From contig PAHB01000116.1 of NCBI GenBank assembly GCA_002704665.1, positions 7,429 through 40,628 on the forward strand: a stretch of DNA of 33,200 bases, written 5' to 3'. The stretch comes from Pseudomonadota bacterium (GTDB lineage Bacteria; Pseudomonadota; Gammaproteobacteria; Burkholderiales; Eutrophovitaceae). Positions 19,724-33,200 of the stretch are shown one piece after another (the first letter of the stretch is position 1; every line of letters begins with the position of its first letter). Position numbers and translations under genes: made by a program. Under the pieces are notes generated by a model. That model saw nothing but the letters and a program-made list of their open reading frames with translations. It was not told where the DNA came from and made no database searches.

Positions 19724-20098
19724 TTAATTAATAAATAATCTTTTGTAAATCAGTGCTATCCAGACAAAGATAAGAAAAAAAATTGCAATGAAGACAGTAG
19801 ATGATGCTATGTCTTTTGTTCTTCCTGATAATTCATTTTGTTCCTTACCTACTCTGTCAGTTAACGTTTCAATAGCAGAATTAAATAACTCTGTAATTAA
19901 AAGTAAAGCTAAGGAGCCTATTAAAATAATATAATCGATTAAGTTTTGGCCTATAAAAAAGCTTAAAGGTAATAAAATAAAACAAATCACTGATTCTATT
20001 CTAAATGCTTCTTCATGTTGCCATGCCTTTTTAAATCCATTTATAGAGTAGCCCCAAGCGTTTTTAAGCCTGGGTAATCCTTTGATATTTGCTTTCAT
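19724..20098 (-). CDS. dgkA: Diacylglycerol kinase (DgkA family, small membrane kinase)
   Basis: MKANIKGLPRLKNAWGYSINGFKKAWQHEEAFRIE aligns with the E. coli DgkA N-terminus. Three hydrophobic helices. The ORF track begins at TTG 20116; ATG 20098 is more likely. Confidence 0.85.
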   Translation of the reverse strand: MKANIKGLPRLKNAWGYSINGFKKAWQHEEAFRIESVICFILLPLSFFIGQNLIDYIILIGSLALLLITELFNSAIETLTDRVGKEQNELSGRTKDIASSTVFIAIFFLIFVWIALIYKRLFIN

Positions 20099-20225
20099 CA
20101 AGTTATTAAGTACCAAGAAATAATCAAGAATAAAATTATAAATAAAAATGAGACGGGTGGATATATCTGCTAAGAAAACATTTATAAATTAATTCTTGCT
20201 TTTGACTTTAAAATTTCTTAAATTA

Positions 20226-20261: not shown

Positions 20262-20876
20262 ATGGTTAAAGGTTTAACAAAAAGACAACTACAAATTTTA
20301 GACTTAATTCATACTTCTATAGATGAAAACGGTATGCCTCCTACGCGTTTAGAAATAGCCAATAACTTAGGCTTTAAGTCGCTGAATGCAGCCGAAGATC
20401 ATCTAAAAGCTCTGGAAAAAAAGGAATTCATTAAGCTTGTTCCTAATGTTTCAAGGGGCATTAAGGTCTTAAAAAAGACAAATAATAAAAATGTTGGATT
20501 ACCTATAGTAGGCCAAGTAGCTGCTGGCCAACCGATTTTAGCTATTGAACATGTAGAAAATCATATTTTGATCGATCCATTTTTATTTGAAAAAAAAGCA
20601 GACTATCTGCTCCGTGTTAAAGGAGAGAGTATGCTGAATTCGGGTATACGTGATGGTGATTTGTTAGTAGTTCATGCAACGAAAGTCGTTCGTAATAATC
20701 AAATAGTTGTTGCACGCCTTGATGATGAAGTAACAGTTAAGAGGTTTAAAAAAGCAGGTTCTAAAATATATTTGATTCCTGAAAATGATAATTTTGATCG
20801 GATAGAAGTCAACTCAAAATATGGAGAATTTATAATTGAAGGTCTCGGTATTGGGATTCTACGTTTGGATATTTAA
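20262..20876 (+). CDS. lexA: LexA repressor
   Basis: N-terminal winged HTH (LTKRQLQILDLI...PPTRLEIANNLGFKS). AG cleavage site in VAAGQPI. Ser/Lys dyad in GESM and VTVKRFKK. Confidence 0.95.
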   Translation: MVKGLTKRQLQILDLIHTSIDENGMPPTRLEIANNLGFKSLNAAEDHLKALEKKEFIKLVPNVSRGIKVLKKTNNKNVGLPIVGQVAAGQPILAIEHVENHILIDPFLFEKKADYLLRVKGESMLNSGIRDGDLLVVHATKVVRNNQIVVARLDDEVTVKRFKKAGSKIYLIPENDNFDRIEVNSKYGEFIIEGLGIGILRLDI

Positions 20877-20894
20877 TTTTTAGTAGATAGAATT

Positions 20895-21497
20895 ATGTTT
20901 TGCAACTTAAATACTAATATCCCAAATACTAGAAGCACTGGGTTGCTTCAGCTAGATAATGTGCTACCTGGAGAAGGCTGGCCTTGCGCAGGTTTAGTCG
21001 ACATAGTTTCTGTTAAATTTTTTGAAGGAGTAATGCCTTTTTTGATGCCCTTAATGTCAGAAGAAACTTATTTAAATAATAAACTAATTTTATTTGATCC
21101 TCCATACATACCGTACCACGAAAGTATTTCAAATAAAGGGATTAATTCTAGTAATATTATTATAGTTAAGCCTAGCAAATCGATTAAAAATCGTACAAGT
21201 GTTATTTATGACTTATTTAAGCAAGGACTTAATCTCAATGACTGTAATGTAGTCATGATGTGGACCAATAAATTACCTTTTCAAGTAAGTCGACAGTTTA
21301 ATTTAATAGCTCAGTTAAATAATACTTTAGCAATAATTATTCGAACTGATGAGCAATTTTATCAAGAAACAATTGCCAGTATTTTAAAAATAAAAATTGA
21401 ACTTATTTCTAAAAATATAGAGCAACAAAAAGTAAAGCTAGAGATTTTAAAATCTACTGTAGGTTTTACAAAAAAACACCATGTGATTTTAATATGA
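20895..21497 (+). CDS. imuA: ImuA (SulA/RecA-fold translesion synthesis-associated protein)
   Basis: TGLLQLDNVLPGEGWPCAGLVDI matches the ImuA hallmark LP-GGWP-G-L-E. Sits between lexA and imuB. Its stop overlaps the imuB start (ATGA). Confidence 0.7.
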   Translation: MFCNLNTNIPNTRSTGLLQLDNVLPGEGWPCAGLVDIVSVKFFEGVMPFLMPLMSEETYLNNKLILFDPPYIPYHESISNKGINSSNIIIVKPSKSIKNRTSVIYDLFKQGLNLNDCNVVMMWTNKLPFQVSRQFNLIAQLNNTLAIIIRTDEQFYQETIASILKIKIELISKNIEQQKVKLEILKSTVGFTKKHHVILI

Positions 21498-23038
21498 TAA
21501 AAAGTAATTTTAATCTCCCAGTTTCACAAAATGAGCAAGATGCTAATATTAATCTAATAACTTCCAAACTGACCAAATCTCTTTGGTGCTATGTCTATAT
21601 AGAGAATTTCTCTCTACAAGTAATGAGTGGCGATGGGTATCAAAAAAGACCGAGCGTTTTGTATGAATATGTAAATGGCGAGTCTATTATTACTCAATTA
21701 AATAGGAACGCTGCAAAAAAAGGTTTTTTTATTAGTATGACTCCGTCGATGGCTTATGGTTTGCCCATCGATTTATATGGTAGAGATAAAATACAAGAGC
21801 AGAAAATTAAAAAAAAAATTTTTAAAGATTTAAATAATTTCTCGCCAATCGTTATTGATGAATCAAGGGATGGAATATTAGTTGAAATAGGAGGTAGCAT
21901 AAAGCTATTTGGAGGGGGAGAAAAAATTTTTAATTTAATCAGCAAACGACTTGCGAAGTACAGATACTCTTTAAAAATAGCAATAGCTCCGACTCCTCGT
22001 GCAGCTTTGATTATTGGTAAATCAGAGCTAAATACTAATGTATGGGATATCAATAATTTAAATGCAACTGTTTCGGAGATTGATCTTAATTATCTGGGCT
22101 TACAAAAAAAAGATACAAAAAAATTCTTAGATTTAGGCGTAAAGACATTGGGCGATGTTTATAGATTGCCTAGAGTTGGTCTTCTTAAGAGATTTTCATC
22201 AGATGTTCTAAAAGTAATTGACCAATTGTATGGCAGGGTTTCCGACCTACCCCAAACAAGTGTAAATTATGATTTTTTTGCTAAATTAGTTAATGTTGAT
22301 CTTGCTGACAATACGTTTTCATTTGAAAACTGTATGCGCTCAATTTTATATGATTTGAATATTTTTTTAAAAAAAAGAACAGCCAAAACTAGAGCGTTAA
22401 AGTGGTTTTTTTTTTCAAAAAAATCATTAAAGAAAGTGGGCGTCAAATTAAATAGCGATGCTTCTGACCCTGAATTTTTATTGAATGAAACAAAAAAGAA
22501 AATAAAAAAAATGTTTCTGGATGAAATGCCAGATAAGATCGGCTTATATGTGAATGATATTAGACATTATTCGTTTCAAACAAGAGATTTGTTTTTATCA
22601 AAGAATAAAGAAGTTTCAAAAAGTAGTGATAAATATATCAATGATATTATTGAAAATTATGGTTCAAATATAGTATATCAAGTTTTAACAAAACCCTCGT
22701 GTGTTCCAGAAAGAACGTTTGATATTTATGATTCAAGTTGTGTTTCTTATAAAAATACTTTTGTTGGTAGAGTTTTTTTTAGTATAAAAGGGAAAAAGCA
22801 CAGGCCAACTTGGCTGCTCAAAAACCCTAAGCGATTAGCAGTAAAAAATGGGCATGTAGAATTTGAAGGTAGTCTGGAGATAATCTCTGATAGAGAAAGG
22901 CTTGTTAGCGGATGGTGGGATGGCGACGAGGTGGCACGTGATTATTTTATCGCAAAAAATAGTGATCATCGGTTATTTTGGATATTTAAGGATTTAAAAA
23001 ACCTAAAGAAATGGTATTTGCACGGTATTTTTGATTGA
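21494..23038 (+). CDS. imuB: ImuB (Y-family polymerase-like, catalytically inactive adaptor)
   Basis: LWCYVYIENFSLQV..., FSPIVIDESRDGILVEIGGSIKLFGG and IAIAPTPRAALIIGK match the ImuB pattern (LW..L..l.L, FSP.V, LDV.GS.RLFGG, A.APT..AA). Confidence 0.75.
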   Translation: MIKSNFNLPVSQNEQDANINLITSKLTKSLWCYVYIENFSLQVMSGDGYQKRPSVLYEYVNGESIITQLNRNAAKKGFFISMTPSMAYGLPIDLYGRDKIQEQKIKKKIFKDLNNFSPIVIDESRDGILVEIGGSIKLFGGGEKIFNLISKRLAKYRYSLKIAIAPTPRAALIIGKSELNTNVWDINNLNATVSEIDLNYLGLQKKDTKKFLDLGVKTLGDVYRLPRVGLLKRFSSDVLKVIDQLYGRVSDLPQTSVNYDFFAKLVNVDLADNTFSFENCMRSILYDLNIFLKKRTAKTRALKWFFFSKKSLKKVGVKLNSDASDPEFLLNETKKKIKKMFLDEMPDKIGLYVNDIRHYSFQTRDLFLSKNKEVSKSSDKYINDIIENYGSNIVYQVLTKPSCVPERTFDIYDSSCVSYKNTFVGRVFFSIKGKKHRPTWLLKNPKRLAVKNGHVEFEGSLEIISDRERLVSGWWDGDEVARDYFIAKNSDHRLFWIFKDLKNLKKWYLHGIFD

Positions 23039-23479: not shown

Positions 23480-25228
23480 ATGAATCCTACAGAATTAAAT
23501 CATTCTTTACCTTTAAAAAATGCTTCCTTCGACACTTTAGCCGAAGCATTAGACTATGCCGCAAAAGGCGAGACAGGCTGTAACTTTTACGATGGAAGCG
23601 GTTCTCTACAATCGAAAATTTCTTATAAAGAGTTGCGGCTCGAGGCAGTTAAGTTAGCTAGAAAGCTGATTGGTCTAGGATTAAAGCGGGGCGCCCGTAT
23701 TGCGCTTATAGCAGAAACTAATCCATTATTTCATAAATTCTTTTTTGCTTGTCAATATGCAGGCTATGTTCCAGTGGCCCTTCCAGCGGGATTTCAAATT
23801 GGTGCTAGAAAGGCCTATGTGGAGCAACTTGAGAGAATGATGGATAGTTGTGGTGCTGACATTGCAATCGCGCCAGAATCTCATCTTGGATTTCTTAGAC
23901 AGGCAGTCGAAAGGTTAGATCTAGTAAAATATGGGTTGCCCTCGGATTTTGAAACTTTGCCTGAAACAGAAGCTCCTCTTAATCCTCTTAAATTGGACGA
24001 TATAGCGTACCTTCAATATACATCAGGAAGTACTCGCTTTCCGAGGGGCGTTGAGATAACCCAAAAGTGTGTAATGTCCAATCTTAGGGATATATCAAAT
24101 CATGGTCTTAAAATTGATAGAGATGACAGGATGGTTTCGTGGCTCCCGTTTTATCATGATATGGGTTTAGTTGGATTTGTGTTATTGCCTCTGGCAAATC
24201 AATTGTCTGCAGATTACTTGAGCCCGAAAACTTTTGCAATGCGTCCGCGATTGTGGCTCAAGCTAATTTCGGAAAATAGAGGAACGATCTCCTCAAGCCC
24301 CCCTTTTGGTTATGCTTTATGCGCTAAGAGACTGAGATTAACAGACCAAGACAAATATGATTTGAGCTCTTGGCGTGTTGCATGTGTGGGAGCGGAACGT
24401 ATTCATCCAGAACCTTTAAGAAGGTTTGCGCATGTCTTAAAAGCTGCGAATTTTAATCCAAAATCATTTGTCCCATGTTATGGGATGGCAGAGTGTGCGC
24501 TTGCTATAAGTTTCGCGCCGCTTGGAGAGGGATTAGATGCTATGGATTTAGATAAGGATCTGATGGCAAGAACTGGAGAAGCTAAGCTTATCTCGGCGTC
24601 GTCTCATAAAACAAACGAATCAACTCTTTCCTTTGTTAATTGCGGTAAGATACTCCCAAGTTTTGAGATGAGTATTCGTGATGATGCCGGAAATGAGCTT
24701 GAAGATTATGTTTGTGGTCGAATTTGTTTGAAAGGTGATTCTGTCATGTCTGGATACTTTCAAAACAAAGACGCTACCGAAGAGGTCCTGGATGAGGAAG
24801 GATGGTTGGACACTGGAGATATAGGCTTTAGGCTAGGAGATGAAGTGGTAGTGACTGCGAGGCGTAAGGATGTAATTATTGTGAATGGTAGAAATATTTG
24901 GCCTCATGATCTAGAATTTCTCGCGGAAAGTTTACCCGGTGTTCGTTTTGGAAACGTTTCTGCGTTCTCCTTTGCTGATGATATCGGGACTGATAATGTG
25001 GTAATGGTTGTTGAGTCAAGAGAAAGTAATCCAGCTAAAAGAAAGGAGTTGATTGAACAACTGCAATCATTAATCCTTTTGCATTTTGGTGTAAAATGCC
25101 TCATCAACCTAGTTCCTCCTAGAACACTACCACGAACATCTTCAGGCAAATTGTCTAGATCGAAGGCGAAGCAAGATTTCTTAGCCAGATATCAAAAGAG
25201 TCCAACAGCTGTTGGCTCATCTGAATAG
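23480..25228 (+). CDS. Adenylate-forming fatty acyl-AMP ligase / acyl-CoA(ACP) synthetase family protein
   Basis: AMP-binding cores YLQYTSGSTRFPRGV, TGDIGF and SSGKLSR. 582 aa. Confidence 0.9.
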   Translation: MNPTELNHSLPLKNASFDTLAEALDYAAKGETGCNFYDGSGSLQSKISYKELRLEAVKLARKLIGLGLKRGARIALIAETNPLFHKFFFACQYAGYVPVALPAGFQIGARKAYVEQLERMMDSCGADIAIAPESHLGFLRQAVERLDLVKYGLPSDFETLPETEAPLNPLKLDDIAYLQYTSGSTRFPRGVEITQKCVMSNLRDISNHGLKIDRDDRMVSWLPFYHDMGLVGFVLLPLANQLSADYLSPKTFAMRPRLWLKLISENRGTISSSPPFGYALCAKRLRLTDQDKYDLSSWRVACVGAERIHPEPLRRFAHVLKAANFNPKSFVPCYGMAECALAISFAPLGEGLDAMDLDKDLMARTGEAKLISASSHKTNESTLSFVNCGKILPSFEMSIRDDAGNELEDYVCGRICLKGDSVMSGYFQNKDATEEVLDEEGWLDTGDIGFRLGDEVVVTARRKDVIIVNGRNIWPHDLEFLAESLPGVRFGNVSAFSFADDIGTDNVVMVVESRESNPAKRKELIEQLQSLILLHFGVKCLINLVPPRTLPRTSSGKLSRSKAKQDFLARYQKSPTAVGSSE

Positions 25229-25248
25229 TTCTCTGGAATTACATCATC

Positions 25249-26157
25249 TTGAAAATCTTAATGACAGGTTCTACCGGCTTCATTGGTAAAAACATAGTCG
25301 AGGGCTTACTAAATCAAGGTCACCTCGTAGTTTCTATTATCAGAGAGGAAAATAAAAAAAAAATCTTTGAGTCCGACCGAAACCATTCTTTTATTGTTAG
25401 CTCTATTTCTAAATTTACCTCGAATTTGGTCGAAGCTTTTTCTGAAGCCGATATAATCATTCATTGTGCGGGATCTGTTAGAGGAAGAGGACCGGGTGAT
25501 TTTCAAACTGCCAACATTGATGCTATTCAAAATTTTATTAACCTTGCAAAAAAATTTACGACGAAGCCTCGTTTTATTTTAATTTCTTCCATGGCAGCTC
25601 GACAGCCAAATCTGTCAGATTATTCGTTTTCAAAATGGAAGGGGGAACAAGTCTTGCGTAATTCTCTTTTTAAATGGGTGATAGTGCGACCCACCGCCGT
25701 TTATGGGCCTGGTGACAAAGCGCTTACTCCTTTACTTAAAATGATTGCTAGAGGAATCTGCCCTAATATTTTCAGATCTTTTCAGAAGCTTTCAATTCTG
25801 CATGTTGACGATCTTGCTCTTGATATTGTCGAAGTCGTACAAAACTTTGAAAAATATCGATTCAAAACGTTTGAAATTCATGACGGTAAAGCTAATGGAT
25901 ATCAGTGGAGCGAAATTATTAAAGTATTAAGAGGAAAAAAAAGACTGATTATGATTCCGATTCCAATAAAGGTACTAAAATTAATTGCTATTATTAATTG
26001 TTATTTGTCAGTTATAGTTGGCTATAAGCCTATGCTCACATTAGGAAAAGTAAAAGAATTACATCATCCTGATTGGCGCTGTGATAATAGTTTAAAATAT
26101 TTAGAAACTAGATTAAAAAATAGGATTACATTAAACTGTAATGCAAGTGAGTTTTAA
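25249..26157 (+). CDS. NAD(P)-dependent epimerase/dehydratase-family (extended SDR) reductase
   Basis: ILMTGSTGFIGKNIV (GxxGxxG) and YSFSKWKGE (YxxxK). TTG start at 25249, or ATG at 25261. Confidence 0.85.
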   Translation: MKILMTGSTGFIGKNIVEGLLNQGHLVVSIIREENKKKIFESDRNHSFIVSSISKFTSNLVEAFSEADIIIHCAGSVRGRGPGDFQTANIDAIQNFINLAKKFTTKPRFILISSMAARQPNLSDYSFSKWKGEQVLRNSLFKWVIVRPTAVYGPGDKALTPLLKMIARGICPNIFRSFQKLSILHVDDLALDIVEVVQNFEKYRFKTFEIHDGKANGYQWSEIIKVLRGKKRLIMIPIPIKVLKLIAIINCYLSVIVGYKPMLTLGKVKELHHPDWRCDNSLKYLETRLKNRITLNCNASEF

Positions 26158-26189
26158 TAAATTCCCGTTGGAGTGATGGGTCATCGAAT

Positions 26190-26441
26190 ATGGAATTAGC
26201 AGAGATAACTAAAACTGTAATATCACTGGCGAGAAAAGTAGACGAAAAGAATATTACACTTACTCCAGAGTCGGCTTTAGTTGCCGATTTGGGGCTGGAA
26301 TCGGTGCAAATTATAGAATTTCTCTGCGAAGTTGAAGACCACTTTGATATTGTAATTGGGGAAGATAGCCTCGCTGACGTTGTCACAGTTTCTGATTTGG
26401 CAGAATTGGTATACCATTTAAGTAGGGAAAAAAAATTATGA
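26190..26441 (+). CDS. Acyl carrier protein
   Basis: 83 aa, acidic, with the phosphopantetheine attachment-type motif ADLGLESVQIIEF. Confidence 0.85.
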   Translation: MELAEITKTVISLARKVDEKNITLTPESALVADLGLESVQIIEFLCEVEDHFDIVIGEDSLADVVTVSDLAELVYHLSREKKL

Positions 26442-27637
26442 GTTTACTTTCAAACTTTGAGTTAGCAGAAAGCAGAAAAAAACAGCTAGAAGGACTTCCG
26501 ATAAACCCTACGGGAGTGGTTTTAGAAAAAATTGTTTCTCCAACCGAAGCTTTAATAAACGGAAAAATAGTAATTCTTGCTGGCACTAATAATTATCTAG
26601 GTTTAACTTTTAGTAAAGATTGCATCGACGCAGGAATCAGGTCTTTGGAGACACAAGGAACAGGAACCACAGGGTCTAGAATGGCAAACGGAACCTATTC
26701 CGGTCATCTAGAACTGGAGAGAGAGATTGCTGAGCTATATTCAATGCCATATTCAATGGTTTTTAGTACTGGTTATTCAGCCAATCTTGGCACAATGGCT
26801 GCATTACTGGATGAAAATAATGCTGTTCTTATTGACTCGGAAGCGCATGCCAGTTTGTTTGACGGATGTCGGATGTCTGGAGCAGAAGTCTTTCGTTTCA
26901 AACATAATGATCCTTCAAGCCTTGAAAAACGGCTTCAAAGATTGGGTGAAAGAGCTAACTCCACTTTAATAATTGTTGAAGGTTTGTACAGTATAAGAGG
27001 AGACTGTGCTCCCCTAAGAGAGTTTGCCGAGTTGAAAGAAAGTTATAATTCTTATCTTTTGGTTGATGAAGCCCATTCTTTAGGTCTTTATGGTCGTTAT
27101 GGAAGGGGTTTAGCTGATCAACTAGATATTCTCGATAAGACCGACTTTATAGTTGGCACTTTTAGTAAAAGCCTGGGTACTATTGGAGGTTTTTGTGTGA
27201 GCAAACACCCTCAATTAGGTCTATTTAAATATTCAAGCAGACCTTACATCTTTACAGCATCTCCCTCTCCTGCTGTTATTGCTTCAACAAGAAGTGCCAT
27301 TAAACTTATGAAAGAAGGAGATCATCTTCGTAAGAATGCATGGGAATCTGCGAGAAATTTACACGGGGCTCTTGAAAGTATTGGGCTTGATTTGCATCCA
27401 ATACCTAGTCCAGTTATTGGAGTATCCTTTCAGAGTGAAGAAGTAGCGATTCAGTTCTGGAATATTCTTCTTGAGTCTGGAATATATACTAATTTGATTT
27501 TACCGCCTGCAGCTCCTGGAGGTGGAGCGGTGATCAGATGTAGCGTTACTGCTGCTCACTCAGTTGAACAAATTAATAAAATTGGGGCATGTTTCAAATC
27601 GATAGCTAAAGAACTTGGGCTATCTAAAGCTGCCTAG
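26438..27637 (+). CDS. Alpha-oxoamine synthase family PLP enzyme (serine palmitoyltransferase / 8-amino-7-oxononanoate synthase / KBL-like)
   Basis: VDEAHSLG and PLP-lysine motif GTFSKSLGTIGG. 399 aa. Start overlaps the ACP stop (ATGA). Confidence 0.9.
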   Translation: MSLLSNFELAESRKKQLEGLPINPTGVVLEKIVSPTEALINGKIVILAGTNNYLGLTFSKDCIDAGIRSLETQGTGTTGSRMANGTYSGHLELEREIAELYSMPYSMVFSTGYSANLGTMAALLDENNAVLIDSEAHASLFDGCRMSGAEVFRFKHNDPSSLEKRLQRLGERANSTLIIVEGLYSIRGDCAPLREFAELKESYNSYLLVDEAHSLGLYGRYGRGLADQLDILDKTDFIVGTFSKSLGTIGGFCVSKHPQLGLFKYSSRPYIFTASPSPAVIASTRSAIKLMKEGDHLRKNAWESARNLHGALESIGLDLHPIPSPVIGVSFQSEEVAIQFWNILLESGIYTNLILPPAAPGGGAVIRCSVTAAHSVEQINKIGACFKSIAKELGLSKAA

Positions 27638-27639
27638 TT

Positions 27640-28524
27640 TTATCTAAAGCCTCCTTTTCTATAGAGCCTCCATAGCAGGCTCCAGGAAAATATTAAAGGA
27701 TACTTTCGTTGGAGTTTTGTTGGCTCTTCTTTTATCCCAGTGTGTCGCTCTATTTTCCATACTAGATAGTCTAGTGGGTTCTCAAACGTAAAAACTGCTT
27801 TTAGAAGACGCATAATGGAAAGGCCTTTGCCTATGAAAAACCGCGTTTGCCAAATAGCAGTTTTTTTTAGATAGTCGACTCTATTTGTATCGTTTAGCCA
27901 AAAGTCTTTTGCGTTTTTTAAAGAGCATTCTGATGCTACTGACTCGGTTAATAATTTAAGCTCTGATAAGGATGTTTTGATAATTGATTGTGGTGCAGTT
28001 CCTGATTCGCTTCGAAGCTCAGCGCTGTATGTTAATCTTAACGCGGTCTCCCACAGCATTTCGGTAGTGAATTTTTTTGGGAGCATAGGGACGCTTTCTG
28101 TAATCATCCTTTTTGTAGCTTGTTTAAAAGACGCTTCGAGTGCTTGCTTAATCTTGATATTTTTTACATATAAGATTTGCGTAGGTTGGGCGAATCTCGC
28201 CCAAAAGTAAGGGTGAAAATCATTAGTTACTCTTTTTTTAAACTGCTCTAAACCAATAACTGCAAACTTTACTCTAAAGTCTTTCGCAAGATTTTCACCC
28301 ACTTGCTGGTAAACATTAGGAGAAAAAAAGTTGGTCAAAATTTTATCTAATGACGAATCAAGATATTTATAACTGTCTACAATAATATACAGATCTACTA
28401 CTGTGTCCCTCTTTCCTCTTAGCCATGAGCCATATAAAATGATTGCTAGAGTACTGTCACCAAATTGGTTTAGGAGCTTTTCGGCAAAGTAATCAGGTAT
28501 TTCTTCTGTAGAATTTTCTGTCAT
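27640..28524 (-). CDS. Nucleotidyltransferase-fold protein, Mmp37/Tam41-like (possible phosphatidate cytidylyltransferase)
   Basis: ILYGSWLRGKRDTVVDLYIIVD (GS...D.D NTase motif). VKFAVIGLEQFKKRV...FWARFAQPTQIL resembles the Tam41 KYGV...aGRlqKPv block. Functional call is tentative. Confidence 0.5.
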   Translation of the reverse strand: MTENSTEEIPDYFAEKLLNQFGDSTLAIILYGSWLRGKRDTVVDLYIIVDSYKYLDSSLDKILTNFFSPNVYQQVGENLAKDFRVKFAVIGLEQFKKRVTNDFHPYFWARFAQPTQILYVKNIKIKQALEASFKQATKRMITESVPMLPKKFTTEMLWETALRLTYSAELRSESGTAPQSIIKTSLSELKLLTESVASECSLKNAKDFWLNDTNRVDYLKKTAIWQTRFFIGKGLSIMRLLKAVFTFENPLDYLVWKIERHTGIKEEPTKLQRKYPLIFSWSLLWRLYRKGGFR

Positions 28525-28581
28525 TGTGATGTAGCCGGTAGCTCGTATTAAAAAATAAATGTAATTTTAGCAATTATTTAG

Positions 28582-29490
28582 GTGAAAATGTTAAACTTTA
28601 TTGGAATTTTTGAAAAAGGGTTGCCAATGCGTTTTATCCACCTTACTGATTTGCATGGTTCAAGTCCGGTTGCAAAAAATTATTTTTCGAAACGTGCGCT
28701 CGGTCTATTTTCATGGAAAAAACGACGTCATTTGCAGCACAATAATCAATTTTTACGACTTTTAATTGATAATGTTAAAGCAGAAAAGCCAGATTTAGTG
28801 ATAATCACTGGAGATATAGTTCAGTTAGGCACAGAATCTGAGATTCAATCAGCAAAGAATTGGCTGTTAGAATATTTTGAAGGTTTACAGATTATGATTG
28901 TTCCGGGCAATCATGATAATTACGCACCTGATTCTTTGGCGTTTTTATTAAAGCATTGGTCTGAATTTTTGCAAATTTCAAGCGATTTTCCCTGGGTTCG
29001 AGAATTTAAAAACTTGGCCTTAGTGGGGTTAATGTCAGCCCAACCCATGCCTTTTTGGTCTGCACGAGGTGACTTAGGCGCAAGACAACTTGCGAAACTA
29101 AAAATAATTCTAGCTGAAAACAAAGATAAATTAATCTGTATGTTTATGCACCATCCACCTTATCTCGAAGGTATCAATCGTAGGAAAAGTTTGAAGATGA
29201 CTAAGCAGTTAGAGCAACTATTATCAGATTATCAGGTCGCATTAATCTGCCACGGACATCTTCATCGGAATATTGAATTCAACGGCCTGAATCCTACTAG
29301 GGTTTTTTGTACAGCATCTGCATCAGCTTGTTTGGGCGATAACTTGTCAAGTTATCGTATTTTTGAACTTGGCTGTGGACTTAAACAATCTGAAATTTCC
29401 ACTACCCTGAAACAACTAGAATTAAATTCCTTTTCCTATAGAACAATTTCGAAAAGATCGTGGACGGTTGCTAGAGAATTTCCTGATTAA
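28582..29490 (+). CDS. Calcineurin-like metallophosphoesterase
   Basis: HLTDLHG, TGDIV, VPGNHD, MHHPP and CHGHLH motifs. GTG 28582 in the ORF track; ATG 28627 (MRFIHLTDLH) is the likely true start. Confidence 0.85.
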   Translation: MKMLNFIGIFEKGLPMRFIHLTDLHGSSPVAKNYFSKRALGLFSWKKRRHLQHNNQFLRLLIDNVKAEKPDLVIITGDIVQLGTESEIQSAKNWLLEYFEGLQIMIVPGNHDNYAPDSLAFLLKHWSEFLQISSDFPWVREFKNLALVGLMSAQPMPFWSARGDLGARQLAKLKIILAENKDKLICMFMHHPPYLEGINRRKSLKMTKQLEQLLSDYQVALICHGHLHRNIEFNGLNPTRVFCTASASACLGDNLSSYRIFELGCGLKQSEISTTLKQLELNSFSYRTISKRSWTVAREFPD

Positions 29491-30548
29491 AATCTACTTT
29501 TTTTAATTAAGATTAGGCTAATAAAAATAATTAAAAAGGGTGGTAGAGTCCAAGATAAGCTTGAAGACCATCCAAGTATTTTATCGAAATTAGAAACTGT
29601 TTGGTGCAAGATAAAGAAAAGCATCGCACACAGGCCCGCTAATAAGTTACTTCTCGAGGTCTGTCGCGTACTTGAGGCGCTTCCCGCTATTGGTAGTGCG
29701 ATAAGGGACATTCCTATTAATGTAATTGGGAGGCTTAATTTCTTCCACAATTCCGAGCGAAATAAATTTTGACCAACTGATACTAATTCAGTTTTTGAAA
29801 GATAACGTATCAATGCCGATATACTAAGCGCCTGGGGAGGTATTGTCAGTCTTGCATATTCATTTTGATTAATAAAGCCTTGCCAAATTAAAGTCTCGTT
29901 TCTAACTTTTTTCATATCTTTACTATCTACAATTATCTTATCGACATTGAATAAGAGCCATTGATTCTCTTCTGATATAAACGCTTTTTCAGCCCTTATA
30001 ATATTCCTGATTTTCCCTTTTTTATCGAGCGTGAATATCTCAATTGATTGTGGTTGAGTATGATTTGATATATTGTTGATTGTAAGGATTTCGTTTTTTC
30101 TTTTTATCCAAATCTGTTCGGAGTTAATTGCAGTTCCCGCGATTGTTTTTGTTGAAATTTTATGAGCTTTAATCTGCATAGTAGGTATGACGAATTGATA
30201 GACAAAAAAACAAAAAATTGAAACAGCTAAACAGGAAAAAAAAAGCGGAAGAACCAAGTTAAATTTTGTAAACCCTGCTGTTCTTGCGACCATTAATTCG
30301 TTGGATTGTATTAAGGAACTAATTGCAATTACTGAACCAATTAGGAACGTAGAAGGGAGTAGATCAAAGATTAAATACGGAGCATTTAACGCAGTTACCT
30401 GAATAGCATTGAAAGCACTGAATGAACCTGTGCCCACATCGTTTAATCGTTCGATTAGGTCGAGCAGTAAAAAAATTGTAGCGAGTATGGCCAGCGCCAA
30501 GATTTGGAATCTTACTATAGTTTTACAGAAATAAATATTTAGTATCAT
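29487..30548 (-). CDS. lptG: LPS export ABC transporter permease LptG
   Basis: YjgP/YjgQ family with six predicted TM segments and a periplasmic beta-jellyroll region. NELMVARTAGFT resembles E. coli LptG SELVVMQASGFT. It is the second gene of the lptF-lptG pair. Confidence 0.8.
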   Translation of the reverse strand: MILNIYFCKTIVRFQILALAILATIFLLLDLIERLNDVGTGSFSAFNAIQVTALNAPYLIFDLLPSTFLIGSVIAISSLIQSNELMVARTAGFTKFNLVLPLFFSCLAVSIFCFFVYQFVIPTMQIKAHKISTKTIAGTAINSEQIWIKRKNEILTINNISNHTQPQSIEIFTLDKKGKIRNIIRAEKAFISEENQWLLFNVDKIIVDSKDMKKVRNETLIWQGFINQNEYARLTIPPQALSISALIRYLSKTELVSVGQNLFRSELWKKLSLPITLIGMSLIALPIAGSASSTRQTSRSNLLAGLCAMLFFILHQTVSNFDKILGWSSSLSWTLPPFLIIFISLILIKKSRF

Positions 30549-30549
30549 G

Positions 30550-31596
30550 CTAACGTATACTTTTGATTTTGCCGTAGTACAACACTAGGGATAACATAAA
30601 AATTGCTGGAATGAAAAAGATATTAGTAATCACCCCCTGCTCGACCCAACTTCTACCTAAACCGATGGCAATGTAGTAAGCTGAGTAGTAGATAATTGCT
30701 AAGGGAAGATTAGCAAATTTTCCACTTCTCGGTTCGATACGAAGGATAAAATAGCAGGTTATTATTAAAATAATCACTGAAATAGGTAAGCAGATCCTCC
30801 ATTGAAACTCTGCGATCTCAGCTTTATTTTTACTGTTGAAGAGCTTCAATGTACTGGTTTCCTTGATTTTTTTATCAATTTTTTCTTTAACTTTTTGCTT
30901 TATATGGATCTCCATTTCCCCAAAGCTGCCAATTACACTGTTCTCGTTGAAATAGTTTTTTATATACTGAGAATTTCGCATTTTAATAATACGCTTATCA
31001 TTTTGAGGTGGGCGAATAATATTGCCGGATTCCGAAGTGAATATTTCGACATCTTTCCCATTATCTAACTTGATGAAAATATTTTGAAGTTGATCCTTAG
31101 TTTTTTCTGTAAAAACGACTTCTTTTCCGTCATCTGAAATATAAAATTGCCCGGAATTAAGCTTTTCAAATTCCCATCGCTGACTTATATTTTCCTTTAT
31201 GTCATATAGCTTCGAGTAAGCTAAAGGTCTTAATATAATTGTTTCAATAGAAGTAAGTATTAAAATAAAGATGCTTATTACAATTACAAGAAAATAGATT
31301 CTTCTTTTCGAATATGTAAGAGTATTCATAGCTATTAGTTCATTAGATTGATTGAAATGACCAAATGATATGATGATTGAAAAATAGAGAGAAAGAGGAA
31401 TTAAAATGCCTAGTGAAATAGTTGTTTTTAACAGTGATACACTGATACAGTCTGACAAGGTAACAATGTCGGCACCTGCACTGCTAAGGAAAACCGTAAT
31501 TGAATACAGCCAAAAAAGAAAGGCCATTCCAAGTTGGCATAAAAAAAAATTTTTGGAAATTTCTTTTATGATGTATTTACCAATGATTTTAGCCAT
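30550..31596 (-). CDS. lptF: LPS export ABC transporter permease LptF
   Basis: YjgP/YjgQ family. N-terminus IGKYIIKEISKNF and ILIPLSLYF resemble E. coli LptF IIRYLVRETLKS / LILPLSLF. Its stop is 1 nt from the lptG start. Confidence 0.8.
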   Translation of the reverse strand: MAKIIGKYIIKEISKNFFLCQLGMAFLFWLYSITVFLSSAGADIVTLSDCISVSLLKTTISLGILIPLSLYFSIIISFGHFNQSNELIAMNTLTYSKRRIYFLVIVISIFILILTSIETIILRPLAYSKLYDIKENISQRWEFEKLNSGQFYISDDGKEVVFTEKTKDQLQNIFIKLDNGKDVEIFTSESGNIIRPPQNDKRIIKMRNSQYIKNYFNENSVIGSFGEMEIHIKQKVKEKIDKKIKETSTLKLFNSKNKAEIAEFQWRICLPISVIILIITCYFILRIEPRSGKFANLPLAIIYYSAYYIAIGLGRSWVEQGVITNIFFIPAIFMLSLVLYYGKIKSIR

Positions 31597-31619
31597 AGAT
31601 TTTTGACAAATATTGTTTT

Positions 31620-32144
31620 ATGAAAAATAAATATTACCCTTTTTTAACTTTTGATCAAACCTTCTTGTTTTTTATAATCCTGGTGTTTATTGCTTGGAAT
31701 TTTATGGCGGCCAACTCTTTTGCGTCCGAGTCGGAGGCAACTATTAGATCACAAGTTATAAGGGTGGTGGCGGATAAAGTGAAGAAAGATGTTAACGATG
31801 GCTTGATTTTTAGTGGAAAAGTAATTGTTTATAACGAGGAATGGGAGGTTCGCGGAGCAAACGGTACTCTACATGAGGAAATTGATAAATCACAAATAAT
31901 AAAGGTTGCGGGTAACCCCGCAGTAATAGAAACCAAAGCTCATAGTCAATACGGTAAATCACTCGGTTCAGCAAAAGAGTTAATATTGTATTTGGCGGCT
32001 GATAAGTTAGAGTTGAAAGGAAATGCTCAATTAAATTCAAAATCAGAAAGTTTACGCGCAAATTTAATTTACTACGATATTTCTACGCGAAGAATGAAGA
32101 CCAAGGGCTCTAGAGTAAAATTTATTTCGGACAAAAAAGATTAG
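31620..32144 (+). CDS. OstA/LptA-family periplasmic protein
   Basis: Signal peptide (cleavage near SFA-SE). Repeated beta-strand pattern with ADKV...GKVIVYNEEWEVRGANG..., GNPAVIE and ADKLELKGNAQL...LRANLIYYD, typical of the OstA_N fold. 174 aa. Confidence 0.55.
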   Translation: MKNKYYPFLTFDQTFLFFIILVFIAWNFMAANSFASESEATIRSQVIRVVADKVKKDVNDGLIFSGKVIVYNEEWEVRGANGTLHEEIDKSQIIKVAGNPAVIETKAHSQYGKSLGSAKELILYLAADKLELKGNAQLNSKSESLRANLIYYDISTRRMKTKGSRVKFISDKKD

Positions 32145-32190
32145 AAAGTCTTTTTAATAGATTTGAATTTTATATAAAAAAACGTCAAGT

Positions 32191-32925
32191 TTAATTTCTA
32201 TTTCGAATGGAGGCATTCCACTTCTTTAAATTTCTTAAAGGGTCCTTTACGTAGTGACTAGATTGAACGATTGCGAGTAAGGATTTATTGAAAATCCTGC
32301 CAATCCGATCCATTGGTCTGTCCAAATCAATAAAAAGAACAGCTCGATATTCGCTGGTGTTATTTTCAACCTCATGTTCAAAGGTATCGTCAAAGAACAT
32401 ACAGGTCCCTGCTTCCCAGTATTTTTTTTGTTTGTCCACCCTAATCCAGCAGGAATATTTATCCTCTGGTATAAGTAATCCCAGATGACAACGAATGAGA
32501 GCACGTGTTGGCCCTCTGTGTGGAGGTATCTTATATCCTGGCGCTAAAATAGAGAACCAGGCGTTTTGTAGTCCGTCAATGCTTTTTAAAATCTTTGTCG
32601 TATCAGGGCAAAGCTTGCAATTTTCCGTAACTTCGTTAGCAAAAATAAATAATGCAAAGGTTTTCCATTTTTTTCCCTTTGAAATTCTTTTTTGATCAGG
32701 AGAAATTTCATGAAAGGATGGAATTTGATCGGGATGCTCCCAAACTTGTTTAAATTCTTTATTGATTTTATCCCAGTTTTGTTCTAAATTTTTCGCGCAT
32801 TCGAAGTGTGAATTTTCTAGAAAAGGAGTACAGGGTAGTTGGGAATGTTTTCCTTGAAATTCACCGCAATATCTTAGTAGCTTTTTCCCGCATTGGTGAA
32901 TGAAGCTCCTTAAATAAGATTTCAT
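32191..32925 (-). CDS. Aspartyl/asparaginyl beta-hydroxylase family Fe(II)/2-OG dioxygenase (LpxO-like)
   Basis: PPHRGPTRALIRCHLGLLIP and FFDDTFEHEVEN match the Asp_Arg_Hydrox family. The ORF track starts at TTG 32940; ATG 32925 is likely. Confidence 0.8.
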   Translation of the reverse strand: MKSYLRSFIHQCGKKLLRYCGEFQGKHSQLPCTPFLENSHFECAKNLEQNWDKINKEFKQVWEHPDQIPSFHEISPDQKRISKGKKWKTFALFIFANEVTENCKLCPDTTKILKSIDGLQNAWFSILAPGYKIPPHRGPTRALIRCHLGLLIPEDKYSCWIRVDKQKKYWEAGTCMFFDDTFEHEVENNTSEYRAVLFIDLDRPMDRIGRIFNKSLLAIVQSSHYVKDPLRNLKKWNASIRNRN

Positions 32926-32926
32926 C

Positions 32927-33200
32927 TTAATGTTCTCCAAGTATTTCTTTTATCAATGGATAGTCTCTTTCGGAATCTAAATCTATTGCTGCCTTAAAGC
33001 AAGTCACCTCGATGAATTTAATTTTTAAACCTGTCCTCTTGCTTAAATACTTTTCAGCGTTTTCGAATTTCATAATTCCAAGAAGATACAATGCTAAATA
33101 GGTGACCCCGAAAAAAGAAATTATCTTCCAAGGCCGCTTTCTCCATTTCTCTATCTTGTTCCATATATTAAAAATATGATTTGTCCGATCGGTTCTAAAT
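32927..33200 (-). CDS. partial CDS (C-terminal 90 codons; start beyond window), hypothetical membrane-associated protein
   Basis: Open minus-strand frame from the window edge to TAA at 32927..32929. Contains the hydrophobic segment WKIISFFGVTYLALYLLGIM. Its stop is 1 nt upstream of the next gene's ATG. Confidence 0.35.
   Translation of the reverse strand, partial: FRTDRTNHIFNIWNKIEKWRKRPWKIISFFGVTYLALYLLGIMKFENAEKYLSKRTGLKIKFIEVTCFKAAIDLDSERDYPLIKEILGEH

Follow-up and report, generated by a model that had tools for sequence, protein, structure and literature searches.

What does the four-gene operon at positions 23480-27637 of a marine gammaproteobacterial DNA stretch make? The stretch, called the window here, is 33,200 nucleotides (nt) long and lies on contig PAHB01000116.1 (contig C7 of assembly G000); all coordinates follow the numbering of the whole window. 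A sequence-only reading of this DNA saw in the operon a parallel to the ceramide genes of Caulobacter, and gave as the alternative an autoinducer-like product of CqsA/LqsA-like chemistry or another aminolipid. Is this a ceramide operon, or would its enzymes make something else? If it is, are all of the genes of the pathway present, and are the genes that follow it part of the same system? We find that 23480-27637 is very probably an aasR-cerR-acpR-spt operon for sphingolipid synthesis of the proteobacterial ('Rhodobacteria'-type) kind, a reading that draws on protein family models, a phylogeny of the synthase and gene order in other bacteria.

The operon and the identity of its synthase

The four genes are all open reading frames (ORFs) of the forward strand. 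The first is an aasR-type gene for a fatty acyl-AMP ligase (acyl-AcpR synthetase) of 582 aa at 23480..25228, identified by the model NF006624 and by homology to Escherichia coli ECD_02851. It is followed after 20 nt by a cerR-type gene (25249..26157) for a 302-aa extended short-chain dehydrogenase/reductase (SDR), the putative 3-oxo reductase of the sphingoid base or ceramide, which begins with a TTG codon and has an ATG 12 nt downstream. After a further 32 nt comes acpR, a gene for a dedicated acyl carrier protein of 83 aa (26190..26441), and then spt, for a serine palmitoyltransferase of 399 aa (26438..27637). The stop codon of acpR and the start codon of spt lie within a shared ATGA, a 4-nt overlap of these two genes. 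These gaps and the overlap, read directly in the sequence, bear out the tight, co-directional packing and the ATGA overlap that had been noticed in the sequence-only reading.

Is the 399-aa synthase truly an Spt? It carries the Aminotran_1_2 (class I/II aminotransferase-fold) domain of Pfam and scores 540.5 bits on the Spt equivalog NF047599, which has Betaproteobacteria in its model name and a cut-off of 500. On the models of the sister families it falls below the cut-off in each case (bioF, 297 against 426 bits; Kbl, 288 against 460; ALAS, 227 against 339; CqsA, 206 against 428). The nearest relatives in the PDB are the Spt enzymes of Sphingomonas wittichii and Sphingomonas paucimobilis at 360–364 bits. 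The other matches there are Kbl (205 bits), BioF (about 155), cysteate-C-fatty acyltransferase (153) and CqsA (115).

The phylogeny places the protein in the same family. A maximum-likelihood tree was made of 37 sequences: the window protein, 17 close homologues, the Spt, BioF and Kbl of E. coli BL21, eight alphaproteobacterial or other Spts, three ALAS, four CqsA-type proteins and a paralogue on contig C65 of the assembly. In this tree the Spt sequences form one clade with support of 100/99, and the window protein is inside it, together with the assayed Spt of E. coli BL21 and with the sphingomonad Spts, which score above their own equivalog cut-off. BioF, Kbl, ALAS and CqsA fall outside, on separating branches with 99–100% support. 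The CqsA group is set apart at 100/100, and the C65 paralogue groups with BioF. The phylogeny of the 399-aa protein that had been suggested as a check was thus run, and the protein did not cluster with BioF or Kbl.

The synthase retains the lysine for pyridoxal phosphate (PLP) as well as the catalytic residues His159, Asp231, His234 and Arg390 (S. paucimobilis numbering). Arg378 is replaced by Leu in the window Spt, in the assayed E. coli Spt and in the whole gammaproteobacterial clade. We considered this change as a sign of an altered substrate and rejected it, because the biochemically assayed E. coli enzyme has the same residue. A Nitrospirales metagenome-assembled genome (L048, JAZFZJ010000180.1, 4264-5421) encodes a protein 52% identical to the window Spt; it was the only match when species genomes were pattern-scanned with Spt.

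The other three proteins also match models of the expected kinds. The AasR-type protein has the AMP-binding domain and scores 739 bits on the fatty acyl-AMP ligase model NF006624 (cut-off 600). The cerR-type SDR matches the Epimerase and NAD_binding_4 families and carries both the nicotinamide adenine dinucleotide motif TGSTGFIG and the sequence YSFSK (Tyr-x3-Lys). Its nearest solved relatives in a PDB search are NDUFA9 subunits of complex I, to which CerR has been likened in published work (PMC11087976). In the Caulobacter model, CerR is periplasmic and reduces 3-oxo-ceramide. The translated cerR-type gene shows no evident signal peptide, and its N-terminus is the Rossmann motif itself. AcpR has a PP-binding domain (PF00550, 35.2 bits) and is below the cut-off of every housekeeping AcpP equivalog. 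The adenylating enzyme, extended SDR, carrier protein and alpha-oxoamine synthase domains that had been named from the translations were therefore all recovered by Pfam and NCBIfam models.

Counterparts in other bacteria and the N-acyltransferase gene

Padilla-Gomez et al. (2022) described how AasR loads AcpR in Caulobacter and in E. coli BL21(DE3), with acyl-AcpR the preferred thioester substrate of Spt (PMC9386255). The Alpha-, Beta- and Gammaproteobacteria have conserved the genes aasR, epi/cerR, acpR and spt along with the N-acyltransferase gene aca, known as yghO in E. coli and as bCerS (CC_1154) in Caulobacter (PMC9386255).

In E. coli BL21(DE3) the locus (NC_012971, 2989282-2997066) consists of a divergent yghO followed by ECD_02851 (aasR), ECD_02852 (epi/cerR), ECD_02853 (acpR), ECD_02854 (spt) and a convergent lptG and lptF. 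E. coli K-12 no longer has this locus. The order aasR-cerR-acpR-spt in the window is identical, as is the convergent lptG-lptF pair downstream. The proteins align over their full length, with identities of 45% for AasR (over 571 residues), 37% for CerR, 40% for AcpR and 49% for Spt. The window proteins and those of E. coli share a Leu-Pro-Pro-Ala-Ala-Pro loop in Spt and an unusual DLGLES motif around the phosphopantetheine serine of AcpR. The identities of the four genes, their order, their family membership and their synteny are observed. These full-length orthologues in the same order, together with the equivalog score and the position of the synthase in the Spt clade, uphold the ceramide interpretation.

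There are also differences from E. coli. In that species yghO is directly upstream of the operon and divergent from it, whereas in the lineage of the window the bCerS homologue is found beyond the Lpt genes, some 6 kb downstream. The E. coli locus is also without a Tam41-like, metallophosphoesterase or LpxO/OlsC-like gene between or beside the operon genes. A 274-aa hypothetical protein of the E. coli cluster has no BLAST similarity to the Tam41-like protein of the window. The arrangement in Nitrosomonas eutropha, compared by its published gene list alone, is like that of the window in both the four-gene order and the placement of the N-acyltransferase gene outside the operon: Neut_0458-0461 are aasR, epi, acpR and spt, and aca is at Neut_1100 (PMC9386255).

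Where, then, is the N-acyltransferase gene of the window lineage? The sequence-only reading saw no obvious bCerS-type gene, and within the 33,200 nt there is none, because contig C7 stops at base 33200, inside a MobA-like nucleotidyltransferase gene. In related loci the MobA-like gene is followed by one for a protein of about 380 aa. This protein has no Pfam match, is 46% identical to E. coli YghO over its full length and belongs to a large family labelled N-acetyltransferase or GNAT by its sources. In published work YghO is identified as homologous to bCerS (CC_1154) of Caulobacter (PMC9386255).

Three TARA Oceans contigs (L016, L017 and L018) encode exactly the Spt of the window and match its DNA at 99.9% identity over 15–17 kb. 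Two of these, L016 and L017, with identities of 99.93–99.96%, extend beyond its end. In both, the nucleotidyltransferase gene is completed (254 aa) and is followed by a gene for a 376-aa YghO/bCerS homologue, 42% identical to YghO over its full length and 52.5% identical to the relative's protein of about 380 aa. In the numbering of the window this gene would map to approximately 33701-34831, about 0.5 kb past the end of the contig. Since L016 and L017 continue into the bCerS homologue, the population of this organism, judged from these near-identical contigs, has the complete set of five ceramide genes, and it is the record that is truncated. The earlier remark on the absence of bCerS thus holds for the window and not for the population. 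The genome search that had been suggested alongside it, made with the relative's 380-aa protein, the conspecific 376-aa protein and tblastn, likewise found no bCerS in the assembly; this is a weak negative, as the assembly is 71% complete and the contig ends in the preceding gene.

The assembly has a further complication. It amounts to 1.67 Mb in 119 contigs and holds two glnS genes, one on C7 and one on C18 (G000:C18:9590-11305). The C18 copy is 69–71% identical to the copies of two genomes of the same genus; that of C7 is only 48–51% identical to them and is closer to those of the Spt-bearing relatives. The backbone of C7 is 35% G+C (0.352), below the 5th percentile of contigs, and its tetranucleotide distance is twice the median. 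In a set of 41 genomes from its genus, family and order, this assembly alone has an Spt over the cut-off. Because of the divergent glnS, the low G+C, the outlying tetranucleotide composition and the uniqueness of Spt, contig C7 is probably mis-binned. We therefore draw no genome-wide claims from the assembly, be it the absence of bCerS or a second lptFG pair on contig C119, as C7 may belong to another organism.

The proposed pathway and its rivals

The substrates, products and transport of the pathway are proposed here by analogy with characterised homologues. AasR would adenylate a long-chain fatty acid and load it onto the dedicated carrier AcpR, and the PLP enzyme Spt would condense acyl-AcpR with L-serine to give 3-oxo-sphinganine. 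The YghO/bCerS-type N-acyltransferase would add a second acyl chain, and CerR, the NDUFA9-like SDR, would reduce the 3-oxo group to give dihydroceramide. The order of N-acylation and 3-oxo reduction is disputed between two studies (PMC11087976; PMC11324152). The Tam41-like, metallophosphoesterase and MobA-like enzymes encoded downstream would build a phosphate-containing head group, and an LpxO/OlsC-like dioxygenase may hydroxylate an acyl chain. Finally, a dedicated LptF/LptG pair and an LptA/LptC-fold protein would export the lipid to the outer membrane.

Some points weigh against this pathway as drawn. Membership in the Spt clade is the sole basis for predicting serine, as opposed to glycine, alanine or cysteate, as the amino-acid substrate. 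The bCerS gene is off the assembled contig and is placed by way of near-identical metagenome contigs. The locus showed no homologue of CC_1160, the ceramide kinase of Caulobacter, and the CC_1159-type CDP-alcohol transferase and CC_1152-type nucleotidyltransferase are absent at the locus throughout the window lineage, including contig L013, with 95% Spt identity.

Could the operon make a related amino lipid that is not a ceramide? Such a pathway would use another amino acid (cysteate for a sulfonolipid of the capnine type, glycine, or alanine for 1-deoxy bases) or would stop at the free long-chain base. Homologous alpha-oxoamine synthases do use other substrates, the cysteate-C-fatty acyltransferase being among the PDB matches listed above, and the set of head-group genes is partly unlike those of Caulobacter and of closer relatives. 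However, the window protein is well within the Spt clade, beside an enzyme that was assayed with serine (PMC9386255), and the Spt models and structures score far above those of any other member of the superfamily. Homologues of both bCerS and CerR are also linked to the synthase. We consider a non-ceramide product unlikely.

The operon might instead be an intact but cryptic or seldom expressed module, one that was inherited and adds little to the membrane. We know of no native sphingolipid reported for the E. coli cluster, and scans of the window for promoters and terminators performed no better than on shuffled sequence. Set against this, all eleven ORFs are intact, and the whole arrangement is kept in relatives with Spts 60–95% identical to that of the window, on many marine metagenome contigs. 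Conservation over this range of divergence points to purifying selection on a pathway that functions and makes a silent operon very unlikely. A further alternative is a CqsA/LqsA autoinducer synthase or a BioF/Kbl enzyme, with an alpha-hydroxyketone signal or an intermediate of biotin or threonine metabolism as the product. All that speaks for it is the alpha-oxoamine synthase fold common to these enzymes. The window protein is below the cut-off of every such model, those groups and ALAS split from the Spt clade, and contig C65 carries a separate BioF-like gene. As far as sequence analysis can go, the phylogeny has already refuted this alternative, of which the sequence-only reading had allowed the CqsA/LqsA form.

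Putative head-group and transport genes downstream

The ceramide operon is followed by genes that probably belong to the same sphingolipid system as far as the end of the window (27640-33200). First is a gene on the reverse strand (27640..28524) for a Tam41/Mmp37-like nucleotidyltransferase of the CC_1161 type, with a presumptive role in head-group activation (PF09139, 28.8 bits, cut-off 24); it is kept in the related loci L007, L009, L013 and L016. Next, on the forward strand, is a calcineurin-like metallophosphoesterase gene of the CC_1158 type (28582..29490; PF00149, 72.9 bits), which is kept in all related loci. Two reverse-strand genes for cluster-linked paralogues of the Lpt permeases come next, an LptG-type gene (LptG2-like; 29487..30548; PF03739) at 221 bits on TIGR04408 and an LptF-type gene (LptF2-like; 30550..31596) at 215 bits on TIGR04407, both under the respective cut-offs of 240 and 230. 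Beside lptF, as in all related loci, is a forward-strand gene for an OstA-like protein of the LptA/LptC fold with a hydrophobic N-terminus (31620..32144; PF03968, 42.8 bits). On the reverse strand again are genes for an LpxO/OlsC-family dioxygenase (32191..32940; PF05118, 170.7 bits) and for the MobA-like nucleotidyltransferase of the CC_1153 type (32927..33200). Only the C-terminal 90 aa of the latter precede the contig end, and they are 100% identical to residues 165-254 of the L016 gene product, which carries PF12804.

The sequence-only reading had placed outer-membrane lipid genes directly beside the operon. The lptG, lptF, LptA-like and LpxO/OlsC-like genes are indeed present, with the Tam41-like and metallophosphoesterase genes standing between them and spt. 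By analogy with Caulobacter, where LptF2, LptG2 and LptC2 have been assigned to the sphingolipid system (PMC11324152), the Lpt genes are probably part of that system and not general lipopolysaccharide genes. In relative G041, which has the same cluster, there are two LptF-type and two LptG-type genes as well as lpxC. The cluster, the extra Lpt genes and lpxC mean that the sphingolipid and lipid A pathways coexist there, as they do in Caulobacter.

The OstA-like protein could act either as an LptA-like bridge that is secreted or as an LptC-like protein anchored in the membrane, and may be analogous to Caulobacter LptC2 by position and fold only. In translation, its N-terminal hydrophobic segment ends in an Ala-x-Ala-like site.

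The comparison with Caulobacter crescentus was made by protein family and through the E. coli orthologues. In the region CC_1152-CC_1168, described by Olea-Ozuna et al. (2021 and 2024), beside spt, are the Tam41/Mmp37 protein CC_1161, the ceramide kinase CC_1160, the CDP-alcohol phosphotransferase CC_1159 (PF01066) and the phosphoesterase CC_1158 (PMC11324152). The same region holds a second LptF/LptG pair (CC_1156/1155), bCerS (CC_1154), a MobA/CofC-like protein (CC_1153), a PF00483 nucleotidyltransferase (CC_1152), LptC2 (CC_1168) and a Wzx-like flippase (CC_1166) (PMC11324152). The AasR, CerR, AcpR and Spt families are common to both, which substantiates the parallel first drawn from the sequence. 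The likeness extends to the Tam41-like enzyme adjoining spt, the calcineurin-like phosphoesterase, the LptF/LptG pair, the MobA-like gene adjoining bCerS and the protein with the Lpt bridge fold. Unlike that of Caulobacter, the locus of the window lineage is without CC_1160, CC_1159, CC_1152, the HIT protein CC_1157 and the CC_1166 flippase. It has an LpxO/OlsC-like dioxygenase, of which there is none in the Caulobacter cluster, and its bridge protein is of the LptA/OstA type (PF03968), whereas that of Caulobacter is LptC (PF06835).

Some of the genes without a counterpart in the window are present in more distant relatives. Contigs L007 and L009, with about 60% Spt identity, have the same layout with the addition of a CDP-alcohol transferase and a PF00483 nucleotidyltransferase, and L009 also encodes a Wzx-like protein. 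In L007 the 394-aa CDP-alcohol phosphotransferase (PIP-synthase-like; L007:12098-13282) is encoded at a site that matches the gap between 28524 and 28582 in the window. The 240-aa nucleotidyltransferase (IPCT-like; L007:16942-17664) is encoded where the window has the gap between 32144 and 32191. The absence of these two genes suggests that the head group of the window lineage is different or simpler.

The dioxygenase is the other feature that sets the locus apart. Genes for an LpxO/OlsC-like dioxygenase of the Asp/Asn beta-hydroxylase type lie inside the cluster in every relative that we examined (L007, L009, L013 and L016). The window protein is well below the equivalog cut-offs of both named families (OlsC, 190 against 450 bits; LpxO, 127 against 500), and a literature search found no paper tying the LpxO/OlsC family to sphingolipids. 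By its placement it is a candidate ceramide acyl hydroxylase. Does this lineage then make a new lipid? Tentatively, and with more doubt than confidence, we suggest that it might make a sphingolipid unlike the ceramide phosphoglycerates of Caulobacter, with a reduced set of head-group genes, an undescribed bacterial ceramide acyl hydroxylase and a dedicated LptF2G2/LptA-like route.

Earlier publications already describe this operon, the order of its genes and its association with Lpt paralogues and head-group genes. With the window, one more uncultured marine gammaproteobacterial lineage joins the long list of likely bacterial sphingolipid producers, and the Caulobacter-type layout, in which the genes for synthesis, head group and Lpt-like transport stand together, is conserved in it. 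Annotators should treat the Tam41-like, phosphoesterase, lptFG and LptA-like genes and that of the hydroxylase as parts of a single lipid system. The value for discovery is limited to two possible leads, the LpxO/OlsC-like hydroxylase embedded in the cluster and the reduced head-group gene set.

Upstream, a gene for a DgkA-type diacylglycerol kinase (19724-20116, reverse strand) stays near the operon in L007, L009, L013 and L016. Its other neighbours vary, with an isocitrate dehydrogenase-family gene in L009 and glnS elsewhere. The DgkA of E. coli phosphorylates ceramide in vitro; that the DgkA-type kinase fills the role of ceramide kinase here is speculative. Between this gene and the operon, lexA-imuA-imuB (20262-23038, forward strand) leads directly into aasR, as it does in all related loci (L007, L009, L013/L014 and L016). 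Because all of them have the same imuB-aasR junction, the lack of dnaE2 after imuB is a conserved trait of the lineage and not a local deletion.

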